In this document: positions 1 to 12,696 of the stretch, piece by piece
Position numbering within the stretch: the stretch's first letter is position 1
Layout of the letters: each line of letters begins with the position of its first letter
DNA from: a virus
Lineage: Duplodnaviria > Heunggongvirae > Uroviricota > Caudoviricetes
Length of the DNA: 12,696 bases
Strand: one strand, 5' to 3'
IMG/VR virus record: IMGVR_UViG_2639763115_000001
Coordinates: 1 to 12,696 of that record
Made by a program: the position numbers and the translations under genes
The notes under the pieces: generated by a model
The model's input: the letters and a program-made list of their open reading frames with translations, nothing else
Databases searched by the model: none
What the model was told of the DNA's origin: nothing

Positions 1-154
1 GTAAGTTGGCAGCATCACCTACAACGGCATTACCGCTATGCATTGCTCATCTTACACACAGCGCAATGTTGATAGATAACCCCAGCATGGAACATGGGTG
101 AAACAGTAGGTCAGAGCTTCAGGCTCTGTGTTGTCAATACAGTGAGGCATAATT

Positions 155-364
155 ATGGCTTTCATTCCACCAACCATCGACGATGTTAGACATTGCTCTA
201 ACGCTTTATCTGTAGACCCCGCCGAAACCGACGCTGCCCGCGCCATTGCTGAACACTACTCAAAGATATCCAATCAGGAGTACCGCATCACCCAAGACGA
301 CCTGGATGACCTCACTGACACAATCGAATATCTCATGGCCACTAACCAGCCAGACTCACAATAA
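155..364 (+). CDS. Small, highly acidic hypothetical protein (69 aa)
   Basis: ATG at 155 preceded by GTGAGG SD 7 nt upstream. 14 Asp/Glu versus 4 Arg/Lys (net about -10). No family recognised. Confidence 0.5.
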   Translation: MAFIPPTIDDVRHCSNALSVDPAETDAARAIAEHYSKISNQEYRITQDDLDDLTDTIEYLMATNQPDSQ

Positions 365-401
365 ATGCACTAATAAATCTATTATTTTCGTTGGATCCTT
401 C

Positions 402-452
402 TATAATGGTGGCCAACAACTCCCAGTGTAATTCGCTGTGAGTTGTTGGCCA
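402..452 (+). promoter_or_regulatory. Perfect -10 hexamer TATAAT (402-407) followed by a 13-bp perfect inverted repeat (410-422 / 440-452, 17-nt spacer); candidate promoter/operator or 5' UTR stem-loop for the 283-aa gene
   Basis: Read directly: TGGCCAACAACTC ... GAGTTGTTGGCCA. Sits in the 110-nt gap between the two plus-strand genes, 22 nt before the GGAGGAGG SD of the downstream gene. No convincing -35. Confidence 0.4.
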
Positions 453-474
453 TGTCAATTCTGGAGGAGGATCA

Positions 475-1326
475 ATGATAAATTATGTCTACGGCGAACA
501 ACTGTACCAGGAGTTCGTCAGCTTCAGGGATCTCTTTCTAAAAAAAGCTGTTGCACGCGCCCAACACGTTGATGCCGCCAGCGACGGTCGTCCTGTACGC
601 CCGGTTGTCGTTCTGCCGTTCAAAGAAACGGACAGCATTCAGGCTGAAATTGATAAATGGACTTTAATGGCGCGGGAACTGGAACAGTACCCAGACCTCA
701 ATATCCCAAAGACTATTTTATATCCTGTGCCTAACATCCTTCGCGGTGTGCGTAAGGTTACGACCTATCAGACAGAAGCTGTAAACAGCGTCAACATGAC
801 CGCTGGCCGCATTATTCATCTGATTGATAAGGACATTCGCATCCAAAAAAGCGCGGGGTTCAATGAGCACAGTGCGAAATACATAGAGAACCTGGAAGCA
901 ACAAAAGAGCTAATGAAGCAGTACCCGGAGGATGAAAAATTCCGTATGCGCGTACACGGCTTTAGCGAAACAATGCTGCGCGTTCACTACATCTCCAGTA
1001 GTCCTAACTACAATAACGGTAAATCAGTTAGTTACCATGTGCCGCTGTGTGGCGTGTTTATCTGCGATGAAACTCTCCGTGATGGAATCATCATCAACGG
1101 TGAATTCGAGAAAGCAAAATTTAGCCTTTATGACTCCATAGAACCGATCATCTGCGACCGCTGGCCACAAGCAAAAATATATCGCCTGGCAGATATTGAA
1201 AATGTAAAAAAACAAATTGCCATCACTCGCGAAGAGAAAAAGGTTAAGTCAGCCGCATCAGTTACGCGCAGCCGTAAAACCAAGAAGGGGCAGCCAGTAA
1301 ACGACAACCCCGAAAGCGCGCAATAA
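475..1326 (+). CDS. Hypothetical protein (283 aa) with a Lys/Arg-rich C-terminal tail
   Basis: ATG at 475 with strong SD GGAGGAGG. Long clean ORF ending 3 nt before a hairpin terminator. No family recognised by eye. Confidence 0.7.
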   Translation: MINYVYGEQLYQEFVSFRDLFLKKAVARAQHVDAASDGRPVRPVVVLPFKETDSIQAEIDKWTLMARELEQYPDLNIPKTILYPVPNILRGVRKVTTYQTEAVNSVNMTAGRIIHLIDKDIRIQKSAGFNEHSAKYIENLEATKELMKQYPEDEKFRMRVHGFSETMLRVHYISSSPNYNNGKSVSYHVPLCGVFICDETLRDGIIINGEFEKAKFSLYDSIEPIICDRWPQAKIYRLADIENVKKQIAITREEKKVKSAASVTRSRKTKKGQPVNDNPESAQ

Positions 1327-1358
1327 ATTATGCCCGGCATCAACCGGGCATTCTTCCA
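1327..1358. terminator. Hairpin between convergent genes (stem ATGCCCGG/CCGGGCAT 1330-1351, 6-nt loop); probable bidirectional terminator
   Basis: 8-bp GC-rich stem read directly, with AT-rich flanks on both sides. Lies between the stop of the 283-aa gene (1324-1326) and the stop of the alternate-frame segment (1359-1361). Confidence 0.55.
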
Positions 1359-1586
1359 TTATTCAGCCGCCACCGGTTTTAACAAGCCAGCATCGAGCAG
1401 TTTACGCGTCAACCACTGCTGGCCTTTACCCGTTAATTGAGGCGTCAACCGTATCTGATAGCCATCTTCATCATCCAGCACCACTTCTTTCACCGTGAAA
1501 TAATCGACTATGACGAACGATATAAGGCGTAATGTGAGCGCCAGCTCCCGCAGCTCCACAGCCACAGCATGGACGGGAAGCCACAA
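1359..1586 (-). other. Out-of-frame 3' continuation of the 1471-2370 gene (probable true C-terminus after a frameshift)
   Basis: This frame is open for 75 codons and ends exactly at the 1330-1351 hairpin. Its translation (…[15 protein letters not shown]…KPVAAE) looks protein-like, while the tail of the 299-aa frame (…[15 protein letters not shown]…) does not. Track start is TTG. Confidence 0.3.
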
Positions 1587-2370
1587 AGTCCATGTACTCG
1601 GGCAATTTTAGCGATTGAAGTTTTGGTATTTTGAAATGCGCCATACCTGGGTCGGAGTCAACATCCACAGGGCATACTTTTGCACGCATCGGCGCGGCGC
1701 GTTCTTCCATCATTTGAACATATGCTGTAGCGCGATCGTCATACGGGCGAATATCCGCCTCTTTCAGAGGTCCGCTATCCTGCGGAGTAGCCTTCATCTT
1801 ATTTATTGATATGCGGCAGACTTCTTCCGGCATCAGGTGCATCATGTTGCGCATGAAAGCCCACCAGCACAGCTCCTGAATACTTAAATCATGGCTATTT
1901 GAAAGGCCCATTTCCTGACGGGCGACATCCAGTATCCAGTTAACGCGATTATTGTGCAGCGTTTCTTTCAGCTCATTAAAACCACGCATCCGGTAATGGT
2001 TATCGTGATGCCAGCACAACAACACCGCGCTATTGTCTCGTTCTGCGTGGACAATATGGTTGTCACACCAACTACGATCTGCGGCCTGGCATTGACCCTC
2101 TTTCCTACGCAACCACGCCACCAGCGCGTCAATTCCACCAATACGGCGAAACAGTTCATCGCTGTTAAAAAACGGCTGCAACGCCTCATTTGTTGCCATG
2201 GTTTGCTCCGTAACAACGAGGCCGTCTTCCATGTGCTCGATTAACTCACGCGGCACCGGCTCCATAATAAATTTACGGCCAGCCTCCACCAGCTTTCGGA
2301 CCTCCTGATCCACTTTGAACGTGGCGAGGCCAAGCTCTTTCTGTACAAAGGGAGTAATTACGGCTTTCAC
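1471..2370 (-). CDS. Phage protein with a Cys/His cluster (C-x2-H … C-W-H-H-x2-H), HNH-like/metal-binding; tentatively DUF968-like; apparently frameshifted near 1580
   Basis: GTG start at 2370 with AAGGTG SD 5 nt upstream. Motif [24 protein letters not shown] read from the translation. Family assignment is from memory only. Confidence 0.55.
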
Positions 2371-2397
2371 ATCACACCTTTAATCACTGATTGGGCT

Positions 2398-2577
2398 TTA
2401 TCTGCTGCCCGGCATTATCTGTTTAAGCACAACCATTTCCTGACGGCATAACACAGCAATAGCAGTCCTGGCTCCAATTTGCTTACCAACCAGGTATTGC
2501 TTTACCTCGCGGCGACTCACGCCATCAAGAAGCATCTTTAACGCTTCACGGGACAATTTGTTGTATTTGCGTGCCAT
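2398..2577 (-). CDS. Small basic hypothetical protein (59 aa) immediately downstream of doc
   Basis: Internal ATG at 2577 with GGAG SD 7 nt upstream, 5 nt after the doc stop codon. The track ORF starts at an upstream ATG (2598) that overlaps doc. Confidence 0.45.
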   Translation of the reverse strand: MARKYNKLSREALKMLLDGVSRREVKQYLVGKQIGARTAIAVLCRQEMVVLKQIMPGSR

Positions 2578-2581
2578 TAAT

Positions 2582-2962
2582 CTACTCCGCAGAACCATAC
2601 AATCTACGTAACGTGGCGGCGACAGAAGATACAGATATCTCGCCAGTCGCAGCGCCTACAGTAAGGTCTGCCAGTTCAGGTGAATCAAATACCTGCACCC
2701 CGTTACGGCGTAGAAATAGCAGCGCACTGTTTAGCGCGGTACGCTTATTGGCATCATTGAATATATGCCCTCTCGCTGTAGCCACCAGGTAGGTGGCGGA
2801 GACTTCGAAAAGGTCGGTGATCTCTTCGTAGGCAACTCTGGCCTGAACTCTCCCGATAATGGCCTCTGCCCTACCCGGATCTGACATTCCCGGCAGGCCG
2901 CCGTAGCGGCTTATATTCGCATCATGAAGCGCAATAAGTTCTTCCGGTGATATATGCCTCAT
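2582..2962 (-). CDS. doc: Doc toxin (Fic-fold kinase, death on curing), 126 aa
   Basis: Translation carries the Fic/Doc active-site motif [12 protein letters not shown] and matches P1 Doc as I remember it over its whole length. Start ATG shares one base with the phd stop (TAATG). Confidence 0.95.
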
Positions 2963-3183
2963 TATCGGTTAACCAGTTCCTTGTTGGTGGAGTCCAGGGT
3001 GTCAAACAGGGATGCAAATTCAGCATCCAGCGCCGCTTTTTTGTAGGCTTCGAAAGTAGCCTTGCTGACAATTACTGCTGGCTCACGGCCTCTGCGGGTG
3101 ATTTCAACCTCTTCCCCGGCTTCAACATTGTTGAGCACTTCAGAAAGGTTGCCGCGCGCGGTACGGAAGTTAATGGATTGCAT
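2962..3183 (-). CDS. phd: Phd antitoxin (prevent host death), 73 aa
   Basis: Translation from the internal ATG ([19 protein letters not shown]…) matches P1 Phd in sequence and length. GAGGTG SD 5 nt upstream. The track ORF begins 2 codons earlier on GTG. Confidence 0.93.
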
Positions 3184-4401: not shown

Positions 4402-4653
4402 TTATTTTTTGATGGTATCGTCTTTTTGGTATACCGGATCGCTTCCCTTTGGCAACTGGAGGCTTAACTGCCGGTAGTGCCGTAGACGTTCCATGAAATA
4501 GGTGCGCAGGTTCTCTGGTTGCTCGCGGGCTACCTGTTCAGCTATGACAGGTATGTTCAATCGCTCTTTGTAGGCAACCCCCCTAGCAGCCAGGTCAACG
4601 TTAACTTTATTCCTTTCTTCCTGGCTTTTAGCTGCTATGTTCCATTCGTTCAT
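4402..4653 (-). CDS. hot: Homolog of DNA polymerase III theta subunit (HolE-like), 83 aa
   Basis: [42 protein letters not shown] aligns with E. coli theta ([42 protein letters not shown]). Second in-frame ATG chosen, giving the 83-aa length I recall for P1 Hot; the track ORF starts 4 codons earlier (4665). Confidence 0.85.
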
Positions 4654-5121
4654 ATTAAATCCCATCCAGAATAATTGAATAACGGCTATTATTTAGTCGC
4701 CGCAATATCTTCAAAGTTTTTTTCTCACCCCATTGCTTTTTGCGCACAGCTTATCTGGCTTGCGGTGCGCCGAAATGTAAATTCGCCTTCAGAGTTATCC
4801 ACAAAGTTATGCACTTGCAACGAGGCCATTTTCCTCATACTGTGTTTGCACACACAGGAAATGGATATTTTATTAATTGAATTTTATTAAATAATAATGA
4901 TAAGGAGAAAATTTGAGATGTAATCATGACATTAATAGATAGGGCCTGCATTACAGGCCCCAACTACATCAAGGAATTCACAGTTCCCTGATTTTTATAC
5001 CGAAAACATGTGCCGTAAGTTCACGTTAACGACTTTCTTTCACCGAATCCAACTATATAGAGGTTGGGTTTCTACGTCAACGTGAGAGCACACAGCTTTA
5101 CATTTGACGAGGATTACCCTG

Positions 5122-5259
5122 ATGATTGTAATTTTTCAGTTTCTAAGTGCATTTTTAAATGCGCCTGTTCTTAGCCAAGTGCTGGCGATTGTCTTCATCG
5201 TGGTTCTGATATGGTTTTTCAAGTCAGTGATAAACAGAGGCGTGCGCTGGCTTATTTAA
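5122..5259 (+). CDS. Small hydrophobic protein (45 aa, MIVIFQFLSAFLNAPVLSQVLAIVFIVVLIWFFKSVINRGVRWLI); one predicted transmembrane helix, basic C-terminus
   Basis: Not in the ORF track. ATG at 5122 with GAGGA SD 8 nt upstream. Only plus-strand gene in an AT-rich intergenic island. Confidence 0.3.
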   Translation: MIVIFQFLSAFLNAPVLSQVLAIVFIVVLIWFFKSVINRGVRWLI

Positions 5260-5442
5260 TGTCGCGCTGAGATATTAATTCCCTTGCTGTTTAACCATTT
5301 TTTGTGTGTGCTGGTGAGCGTGTGAAGGCTCAATTTGTTGCCCACCAGTATTTACTATTTCTAAGCTCCACAGTGTCACTTCCGCACAAACAACTTAGCG
5401 CGGAATCAGTATTCGGCCCAAGATGTAAAAAGCCAACCTGCG

Positions 5443-5709
5443 TTATGGTTCGCATTTCCAAATAGTGTTCTGAACGCCCGTGCCGGGCGCGAGATGTGGA
5501 TTAGCGTTCGCGCTATGCTGATATACGGCTTTAGACTTTCCATATTGCTGACAGGCTTTATCTGCGGTTTTTTGCAGGCTATCCAGCCCATACCAGCCAT
5601 CAGACTGGATGCTTACCTTTTCACCGTCATTGTATTGCACCATTGCACACCCGGACATAGCCAGCATCGCACCGACAATAACGCTTTTCCATAAAACTCT
5701 ATGCAACAT
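5443..5709 (-). CDS. Putative small lipoprotein (88 aa from ATG; signal peptide with lipobox-like AMSGC)
   Basis: N-terminus MLHRVLWKSVIVGAMLAMSGC has a basic n-region, hydrophobic core and Cys. Track ORF starts on TTG two codons upstream. SD-like GAGGGGA lies inside the upstream terminator stem. Confidence 0.45.
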   Translation of the reverse strand: MLHRVLWKSVIVGAMLAMSGCAMVQYNDGEKVSIQSDGWYGLDSLQKTADKACQQYGKSKAVYQHSANANPHLAPGTGVQNTIWKCEP

Positions 5710-7415: not shown

Positions 7416-7538
7416 TCACTTAATAAAACAACTCCATGCGTAGTTGATGATTTTTTCCCACGCAATATAAATCTGCACTCCAGCAGTAAAACCAAAGCCT
7501 ACAATTGCTGAAAAAATCAAAACATTTACTTTTGACAT
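7416..7538 (-). CDS. Small hydrophobic peptide (40 aa, MSKVNVLIFSAIVGFGFTAGVQIYIAWEKIINYAWSCFIK)
   Basis: Not in the ORF track. Weak SD. Stop lies 8 nt before the ATG of the downstream 97-aa gene. Confidence 0.25.
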   Translation of the reverse strand: MSKVNVLIFSAIVGFGFTAGVQIYIAWEKIINYAWSCFIK

Positions 7539-7586
7539 TATAAAATTTCTCTCGGTGTCGTAGGTGATAGCACCATAATTGATAAT

Positions 7587-7919
7587 TTAGTGAGTTAGCA
7601 GCTTCATTTTTTTGATGATTTCCGCATGAGCATCATCGTTATCAACACTTAGCTCGTTTAATGCTTCTCGCACTACATCAACTTCTTCAGGCTGAAAGAA
7701 GTCGTCGCGGTAATCACCAAATAGAACCGAAACCAGCCTGGCACCAGCAACATCAAGATTAGCGCTAACAGGTGGCTCGATATCTCGCCCACAATTCCAG
7801 GCTTTTTGGGCTTCTTCCAGCGTGTAAACATGAGCGCGATCGATATCAGAGCTGTAACCATTGCCGTTATGGCAATGGAATGAAGCGTTATTACCCACAG
7901 TTTCACGCGAGCACATCAT
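7587..7919 (-). CDS. Hypothetical Cys/His-containing protein (110 aa from ATG)
   Basis: Track ORF starts on TTG at 7961 and would overlap the upstream gene by 32 nt. First ATG (MMCSRE…) lies 10 nt after the upstream stop. Cys3, His15, Cys16, His17, Cys43 near the N-terminus. Confidence 0.5.
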   Translation of the reverse strand: MMCSRETVGNNASFHCHNGNGYSSDIDRAHVYTLEEAQKAWNCGRDIEPPVSANLDVAGARLVSVLFGDYRDDFFQPEEVDVVREALNELSVDNDDAHAEIIKKMKLLTH

Positions 7920-7929
7920 GTAAAAACGG

Positions 7930-8511
7930 TTACTCACTGGTTGCCCCCTGAATACGCTCAAACTCGATTACCCAAACCCAGGGATTAGCGTTCCAACTTT
8001 CTTCGCCATAAATTGATTCCCATAGGCTACGGAAACCTGGGTAATGCTTATCGCCAATGAGGGTAAATTCTGTTGGTGCGCCCTCAGCCCTTGCATCGCA
8101 TTCGCTGATATCGTTCAACCGCTCAACGCGCACGTTGGTAATTTCCAGCAAAATGCGCGATGCCCAGCGCGGCATGTGAATTGATGGCGTCCACTTTTCT
8201 GATACTGGCTTATTACAAACCTCAACCGGAACCCGGTGCGTTTGTTCTGTCCAGGAGTTACGCACGCTTGCGCGATAAACCAGCGTTGCGACGTCCGTCG
8301 CTTTGCCATGTACCCGGTAGGTTTCACGAACCCAAATACGATCTCCCGGTTGACCATATGGACAATGTTTAGCAAGCAACTCTGCGGCCACTGCCCGTCC
8401 ATAGAATTTTTCTTCAACAATCCTGCGAGTCTGTGTTTTATTCCCGCCAAGAATTGCCCGGACCATCTCATCGTTGAAAATCATGCCGCGCTCTTTCACT
8501 TCGCCTTTCAT
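7930..8511 (-). CDS. Phage protein, tentatively ASCH-like domain (193 aa)
   Basis: ATG at 8511 with AAGGGGGA SD. The MIFNDEMVRAILGGNKTQTRR … PGDRIWVRETY pattern recalls ASCH-type phage proteins; assignment from memory. Confidence 0.65.
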   Translation of the reverse strand: MKGEVKERGMIFNDEMVRAILGGNKTQTRRIVEEKFYGRAVAAELLAKHCPYGQPGDRIWVRETYRVHGKATDVATLVYRASVRNSWTEQTHRVPVEVCNKPVSEKWTPSIHMPRWASRILLEITNVRVERLNDISECDARAEGAPTEFTLIGDKHYPGFRSLWESIYGEESWNANPWVWVIEFERIQGATSE

Positions 8512-8520
8512 GCATCCCCC

Positions 8521-8607
8521 TTACCCATGCGCGACAATGCCGCCAAAAGTGATAGAGAACAGCCAGAAATAGATCGCGGCCATAATGATTTTGAATGCCG
8601 TGTTCAT
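8521..8607 (-). CDS. Small hydrophobic peptide (28 aa, MNTAFKIIMAAIYFWLFSITFGGIVAHG), first ORF of the operon
   Basis: Not in the ORF track. Consensus AGGAG SD exactly 8 nt upstream of the ATG. Ends 10 nt before the next gene. Confidence 0.3.
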   Translation of the reverse strand: MNTAFKIIMAAIYFWLFSITFGGIVAHG

Positions 8608-8634
8608 ATTTTCAGCTCCTGTGATTGATTGGAT

Positions 8635-11550: not shown

Positions 11551-12239
11551 GCTGCACCATCACCTTTCACTTTCATCAATGTCAGGTTTCCGCAAAATAC
11601 GGCACCAGTGTCGATATAATGCTGATTCCAGAATGTCTTCGGGCTTTTCACCGGAGTGTGACCAAAGATAAAACGATCTGCGCCCGAAATTTCGCCACCA
11701 ATATCATCCATCGAATCACTGATACGCTCGCGCGCCCAGACAACGTTGAAAAGCGGCACCTCCTTACCGAATTGATATTCATTATCCGGATAGTCGGCAT
11801 GGGCTATAACGATAGTTTCTTGCCCGGTGTTCAACTCAATGATATAGGGCAGTCGTCTTACCAACTCCACCAGCGCCCTGGCTAATATTTCCTGATCAGC
11901 GTCCAGCATGAAGAACCATTGACCGCCATTCATTAGCCAATTATTCACGTTGCCATCAGGACTTAACGCATCAATCATCAGCTGCTCATGGTTGCCCATA
12001 ACCGCTCTGAACCATGGCATCTGCAATAGCTCCAAGCATTTAACATTTTCGGTGCCGCGATCGATAAGGTCGCCGACCGATATCAGTAAATCCTGCGCAG
12101 GGTCAAAATCCACACGATGGAGTTCGGACATCAGTCTGGTGTAGCAACCATGCAGATCACCAACAACCCAGATATTCCTGTATTTGGTACCGTCGATACG
12201 GTGATAAATTGTTGGTGCCATCATGTATTCTTCAGCCAT
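11547..12239 (-). CDS. ppp: Ser/Thr protein phosphatase, lambda-PPase-like metallophosphatase
   Basis: GDLHG, GDLIDRG, GNHE and later His motifs; near-collinear with lambda PPase from the IDG(T/S)[15 protein letters not shown] block onward. Start could be 12239, 12224 or 12221; the last overlaps the upstream stop as TGATG. Confidence 0.9.
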
Positions 12240-12565
12240 TCTTTAAGAGTCATCTGCGGAATACCTCCCATTTTCCCGCATGAAACAACGTCAATCTGTT
12301 CACGCGCAGACTGGAATAACAAAGGCAGGTGACTTAGATTTTTTGGCGTGCCGCCGGAATGAACGCGTGGTTCTTGCGTAGCGTCAACGCCCACCAGGGC
12401 TACATGTTTGAATCCGATATGGAAAGCCAGGTTCAGAGCACCATATGCACTATTGCCGCTGGCAATTTCATTCTCATCTTCGCAAAGGCCGAAATGTGCG
12501 GACCAGCGCCACGCCCACCACTCGGGAGAATTCGTATTTTTTGGCTCCGTGCCGCGCTCAGCCAC
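12221..12565 (-). CDS. Hypothetical protein; 5' end uncertain (GTG start at 12565, or a frameshifted/longer gene entering from beyond the window)
   Basis: C-terminal part (…[27 protein letters not shown]…) looks protein-like. A second minus frame is open from the window edge (12696) to 12433 and overlaps it. Confidence 0.35.
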
Positions 12566-12696
12566 ACGACGGAAGCACAGAACGCCGTCTCTGACCTCAC
12601 GTTCTTTAACATCGGGTAACCTTTTTTCTGCCCTTCAGCCTTCATTTTCCCGGCGGTTGCTTTTGAACGTTTCCCTCTGAAGTGGTTTACTGAATT

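Follow-up and report, generated by a model that had tools for sequence, protein, structure and literature searches.

The DNA considered here is a stretch of 12,696 nt, referred to below as the window, and its left part raises the question of how an apparently ordinary gene has come to end where it does. On the minus strand, an open reading frame (ORF) of 299 codons runs from 2370 to 1471 and stops well before any terminator, and a second frame of 75 codons (1586-1359) overlaps its end and stops 8 nt short of a hairpin. A preliminary description took the two frames to be parts of one gene split near 1580, the true C-terminus lying in the adjacent frame, and offered a sequencing or assembly indel, a real pseudogenization or a two-product arrangement as the possible causes. 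Comparison with relatives of the window leads to another answer. With a probability that we put at about 95%, the locus is the scar of a single deletion of about 4.9 kb in a decayed P1-like phage-plasmid, where a truncated pdcB was joined to the tail of the antirepressor gene, ant. The features of the locus are collected in Table 1.

Table 1. Features at and around the junction of pdcB and ant, in window coordinates.
Feature	Position	Strand	Description	Basis
c1 repressor gene	475..1326	+	283 aa, intact; left neighbor of the junction	ORF; same place relative to P1 c1
Terminator-like hairpin	1330..1351	-	Stem of 9 pairs (6 G-C), where c1 and ant converge	Terminator scan
'ant	1359..1502	-	Last 47 codons and stop of the antirepressor gene, KilAC domain; N-terminal ~304 codons deleted	
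Foreign tail of truncated PdcB	1471..1500	-	Nine codons (FHGERSGAG) and stop; the ant remnant read out of frame	
Deletion junction	1500..1502		ATA (+ strand), common to both parental flanks	Three-way alignment and blastn
pdcB'	1501..2370	-	Codons 1-290 of the 347 of P1 pdcB; DUF968; 3' end absent	tblastn, protein alignment, Pfam, PGAP
Out-of-frame pdcB	1503..1586	-	First 28 codons of the 75-codon ORF; not coding in that frame; TTG start is a mechanical call	
pdcA	2398..2598	-	Intact, upstream of pdcB; PGAP start at 2577	ORF, P1 annotation, PGAP
phd-doc addiction operon	2582..3183	-	Intact; doc 2582-2962, phd 2962-3183	ORFs, P1 annotation, PGAP

The window can be assigned to a P1-like plasmid. 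Several complete plasmids from Salmonella enterica, E. coli, E. albertii and Shigella flexneri match it at 100% over its whole 12.7 kb, and its ORF map is that of the immunity and addiction region of phage P1, with coi and c1 on the plus strand and pdcB, pdcA, doc, phd and humD on the minus strand. The annotation of the identical plasmids names c1 'phage repressor protein C1'. When window positions 1200-2700 are compared with phage records by megablast, P1, P7, SJ46, RCS47 and others match at 96-99%, only over 1500-2700, and in every phage record matched the pdcB match ends below window base 1500. Positions 1200-1340 match the c1 region of phage records.

The 299-aa ORF is a fragment of a member of the DUF968/PdcB family, not an intact member. 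Residues 1-290 of P1 PdcB (YP_006573.1, 347 aa) align by tblastn to window positions 2370-1501 with 99.3% identity, ungapped and in a single frame. Protein alignment of the same residues with the ORF gives no gap and two or three differences, the "low-complexity" stretch included. PdcB of the P1-like plasmid pLH85-a-A likewise matches the 299-aa frame over the same stretch, at 97.2%, and both homologs leave this frame only at base 1500. The place of the gene, after phd-doc-pdcA, is also that of P1 pdcB. What the window copy does not share with P1 PdcB is the last 57 residues (CAHDIYAIPLCQSCQ...SSSVR; DUF968 positions 115-171), in whose stead stand nine unrelated residues; the DNA that encodes these (1471..1500) corresponds to the 3'-terminal part of pLH85-a-A ant. 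The ORF passes the gathering score of Pfam DUF968 (PF06147) with 108.7 bits (E = 4e-31; cut-off 27.8), covering profile positions 1-114 of 171, whereas P1 PdcB covers positions 1-171 with 170.8 bits. The domain is therefore incomplete, the CQSC motif and everything beyond residue 290 being gone. Because the last third of DUF968 is lost, including its second Cys pair (CQSC), the truncated PdcB would be non-functional. In the literature PdcB is listed as a protein of unknown function, and P1 with a pdcB::kan insertion can be recovered as a lysogen (PMC10067587). Its gene was among those conserved in P1-like elements in one survey (PMC9603915), and its RefSeq name is 'HNH endonuclease'.

The adjacent 75-codon frame consists of the end of one gene preceded by the out-of-frame sequence of another. 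The Pfam profile ANT/KilAC (PF03374) matches it with 27.2 bits, just above the cut-off of 25.3, and only over profile positions 69-106 of 108. In tblastn, residues 300-351 of the antirepressor of pLH85-a-A (WP_254521326.1, 351 aa) match window positions 1517-1362; this local match extends past the junction, and the part of it on the ant side, bounded by base 1502, amounts to no more than the final 47 codons. At the DNA level, window positions 1375-1502 are 91.4% identical to the 3' end of P1 ant1/ant2. Relative to ant of pLH85-a-A, the window keeps the last 47 codons, the stop and the c1-side terminator, and is without the roughly 304 N-terminal codons, the native start and the preceding icd and C4 RNA. 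The remnant is thus no full-length antirepressor, lacking the N-terminal region and a start of its own, and it is probably not expressed. As to the 28 codons of out-of-frame pdcB that precede it, a stop-free run of this length is expected by chance about one time in four by simple arithmetic. The sole terminator-like hairpin between 1100 and 2700 is that at 1351-1330, which lies 120 nt beyond the stop of the 299-aa ORF. This hairpin is the native terminator of ant and does not belong to pdcB: it lies inside the block that is collinear with pLH85-a-A, a plasmid in which c1 and an ant of full length run toward it from either side.

The undeleted order is seen in pLH85-a-A, where c1 on the plus strand is followed on the opposite strand by ant, icd, pacB, pacA, lpa, pdcB (347 aa), pdcA, doc and phd. 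In blastn against this segment (given in its own coordinates), window 20-1502 corresponds to 1001-2483 with 98.9% identity, and window 1500-2700 to 7430-8630 with 96.3%. A base-by-base three-way alignment with both flanks shows two collinear blocks that overlap by 3 bp and are separated in pLH85-a-A by 4,949 bp, a figure that is an estimate, pLH85-a-A not being the direct parent but a plasmid to which the ancestor was a mosaic relative. As read from pLH85-a-A, the deletion took the last 57 codons of pdcB (291-347), then lpa, pacA, pacB, c4 and icd, and some 304 codons of ant. The P1 annotation places the site of pac cleavage inside pacA. Rfam recognizes in the deleted interval of pLH85-a-A the C4 antisense RNA (RF01695, 75.9 bits) and a match to isrK; a scan of the window at gathering thresholds gives no match, to C4 RNA and isrK included.

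The arrangement of pLH85-a-A differs from that of P1 in that its immI module (C4 RNA, an isrK-like sRNA match, icd and ant; segment 3668-3858) lies between pacB and c1. With immI in this position, one deletion is able to remove the packaging genes and immI together. Across the junction the identity to pLH85-a-A falls from 98.9 to 96.3%, which suggests that the P1-like ancestor was a mosaic.

These comparisons can be put together in a model of how the two frames arose. One deletion of the estimated size, with microhomology of 3 bp at its ends, would have brought codon 290 of pdcB and the final 47 codons of ant together in different frames. Translation of pdcB now continues for nine foreign codons into the ant remnant and stops at 1471. 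The remnant itself retains its own frame, stop and terminator, and the adjacent frame for this reason resembles a real protein that ends at the hairpin. Without Lpa and the terminase, the late program and the packaging of DNA would be impossible, and the element is expected to persist only as a plasmid.

How does this model compare with a change of a single base? A one-base insertion at about 1581-1584, whether a real mutation or an error of sequencing, would have split a gene of 336 aa. Several of the observations behind this proposal are sound. The 299-aa frame does stop well short of a terminator, the gap to the hairpin being 120 nt; the removal of any one base at 1581-1584 does yield a 336-aa fusion when simulated; and the adjacent frame does stop beside the hairpin. 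That frame was said to read as ordinary protein, which is correct for its last 47 codons, those of ant, and incorrect for its first 28, which are pdcB out of frame. PdcB, however, is 347 aa long in P1, pLH85-a-A and pEC1515-2, and the 299-aa frame is still matched, without a gap, by the proteins of P1 and pLH85-a-A over the 27 codons (80 nt) that follow the proposed site. The low-complexity tail is therefore authentic PdcB, homologs following the 299-aa frame to residue 290. Compared with both frames, homologs followed the first past residue 260 or so and never aligned to the second, and the C-terminus that the second frame encodes is that of Ant by Pfam (ANT/KilAC) and tblastn. A one-base repair at 1581-1584 makes the product score worse: its DUF968 match falls from 108.7 to 84.1 bits and from positions 1-114 to 1-96, and a foreign KilAC fragment is gained. 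Moreover, at least 13 independent assemblies, all of them complete plasmids, have exactly this sequence, which rules out an assembly artifact and with it the sequencing or assembly indel. A frameshift is in our view extremely improbable. The preliminary description was right that something is amiss at the 3' end of the gene, and right in naming real pseudogenization among the causes; it was mistaken as to how and where the gene was broken and what product was to be expected, since the break lies at 1500-1502 and is that of a deletion.

The overlapping open frames could also be taken for a programmed frameshift, in which two products would be made by design, the 299-aa protein and a trans-frame one of 336 aa. 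The downstream frame is, however, the tail of another gene that the deletion placed there, and it has this position in only 13 of 704 matching PLSDB records. The second frame is absent after pdcB from every intact homolog examined, and what follows pdcB there is the operator and promoter of lpa, according to the P1 annotation. We give such a pair of products practically no weight. A somewhat better case, still a very unlikely one, can be made for an illegitimate or homologous exchange between two P1-like elements that brought a block of c1 and the ant tail beside a truncated pdcB. Recombination among P1-like elements is frequent (PMC10879196), and the unequal identity of the two flanks to pLH85-a-A (98.9 versus 96.3%) suggests mosaic ancestry; the inequality can, however, be older than the deletion, and a single deletion from the layout c1-ant-icd-c4-pacBA-lpa-pdcB, with its 3 bp of microhomology, explains both new adjacencies. 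Whether by deletion or by exchange, the outcome for the two ORFs is the same, a truncated pdcB and an ant stub.

The deletion junction is found in a limited number of plasmids. A 300-bp query that spans it is present in one piece and at 100% identity in 13 PLSDB plasmids (from E. coli, E. albertii, E. fergusonii, S. flexneri and S. enterica), and likewise in 12 plasmids of the complete E. coli genome set. In PLSDB the carriers are 13 of the 704 matching records, and the other records, about 700, hold the two halves apart. All junction copies are identical in sequence, and the carriers form a small clonal set of plasmids, a single lineage. PGAP already treats both pieces as partial pseudogenes, pdcB' as 'incomplete; missing C-terminus' and the ant stub as 'missing N-terminus'. 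For another of the identical plasmids, the one entry that PLSDB has within the ant stub is a hypothetical protein of 41 aa, which we regard as a mechanical call. In annotation, the 299-aa ORF is properly a pdcB pseudogene that lacks its C-terminus, the short ORF downstream of it is an ant remnant, and no base of either should be edited.

The state of the rest of the element was assessed from one carrier, the 84-kb plasmid pYLPD4b, read as a whole. It has kept replication and partition genes of P1 type, cre, c1 and phd-doc, and it holds many IS elements, mobI, a gene with a TraI domain, a class 1 integron (dfrA17-aadA5) and sul2. By tblastn, Lpa, PacA and PacB of P1 and Icd of pLH85-a-A have no match anywhere in the complete pYLPD4b, and among its annotated products there is no capsid, tail or terminase protein. 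A relocation of the pac genes to another part of the plasmid was also considered and rejected, the tblastn comparison of pYLPD4b with Lpa, PacA, PacB, Icd and Ant returning stubs only. A functional P1-like phage-plasmid is thus not what is seen here: Lpa, PacA, PacB and Icd are absent from pYLPD4b, and the C4 RNA, present in the intact relative, is absent from the window.

Pfeifer and Rocha have described how P1-like phage-plasmids lose phage genes and become plain plasmids, often with gain of mobilization and resistance genes (PMC10879196). pYLPD4b follows the same course, with the P1 backbone kept, the terminase and late-activator genes gone, and relaxase-related and resistance genes gained, and it differs from the published cases in nothing essential (PMC10879196). 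The locus fits this published decay of phage-plasmids into mobilizable plasmids. Since both the annotation as partial pseudogenes and the route of decay are already on record, the locus is a case of ordinary gene decay and reveals no new biology. Its use is of a practical kind. The junction at 1500-1502 is a compact marker of one clonal P1-derived lineage that is without packaging and late-gene control, and the lineage so marked carries resistance genes as a plasmid across Escherichia, Shigella and Salmonella.

The same block is missing at this locus in other P1-like elements, with other end points. Plasmids of the pEC1515-2 class and the phage record phi456 are like the window in having a 3' ant stub beside c1, from whose neighborhood pacA, pacB, c4 and icd have gone together with the 5' part of ant. 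In pEC1515-2 (NZ_CP021846.1), unlike in the window, pdcB is intact (347 aa), and a truncated lpa is followed by a 74-bp island of pacB and an ant stub of about 300 bp. This arrangement lies at 2509-3034 of the pEC1515-2 segment, and about 20 similar plasmids are among the matches of the junction query. In phi456 (OR339795.1; segment 4160-5753), an IS1 separates an ant stub of 110 codons from a pdcB of which 155 codons are left. The phi456 record is filed as a complete phage genome of 89 kb. On these alignments, P1-like elements appear to have lost the pac/lpa/immI block (5 kb) on at least three separate occasions, with the 3' stub of ant left beside c1 each time.

Recurrence of this kind may reflect selection and not neutral decay, a reading that we consider unlikely in all its variants. 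In one of these, c4, icd and ant must be lost together, since icd and ant without c4 would be harmful. In another, proper expression of c1 could require that the c1-proximal tail of ant and its terminator stay in place. In a weaker variant, the 290-residue stub of PdcB could retain a function through its N-terminal Cys/His region.

More signs of decay are present elsewhere in the window. PGAP calls two further partial pseudogenes, at 7758-7937 and 12221-12619 (22068-22247 and 26531-26929 of pYLPD4b), and the second adjoins an IS30 and transposase fragments that lie just past the right end of the window. At the other end, an IS1A is found directly upstream of window base 1 in the identical plasmids, between the cre-adjacent gene and coi (13577-14274 of pYLPD4b); pLH85-a-A has no IS in this position. 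A last region to be mentioned is that of about 790 bp from hot to the next called gene (4653-5443), which has no match in Rfam and carries no annotated feature in the RefSeq copy (18963-19753 of that record). Its counterpart in P1 consists of upfM, upfN and upfO, and pLH85-a-A also differs there.
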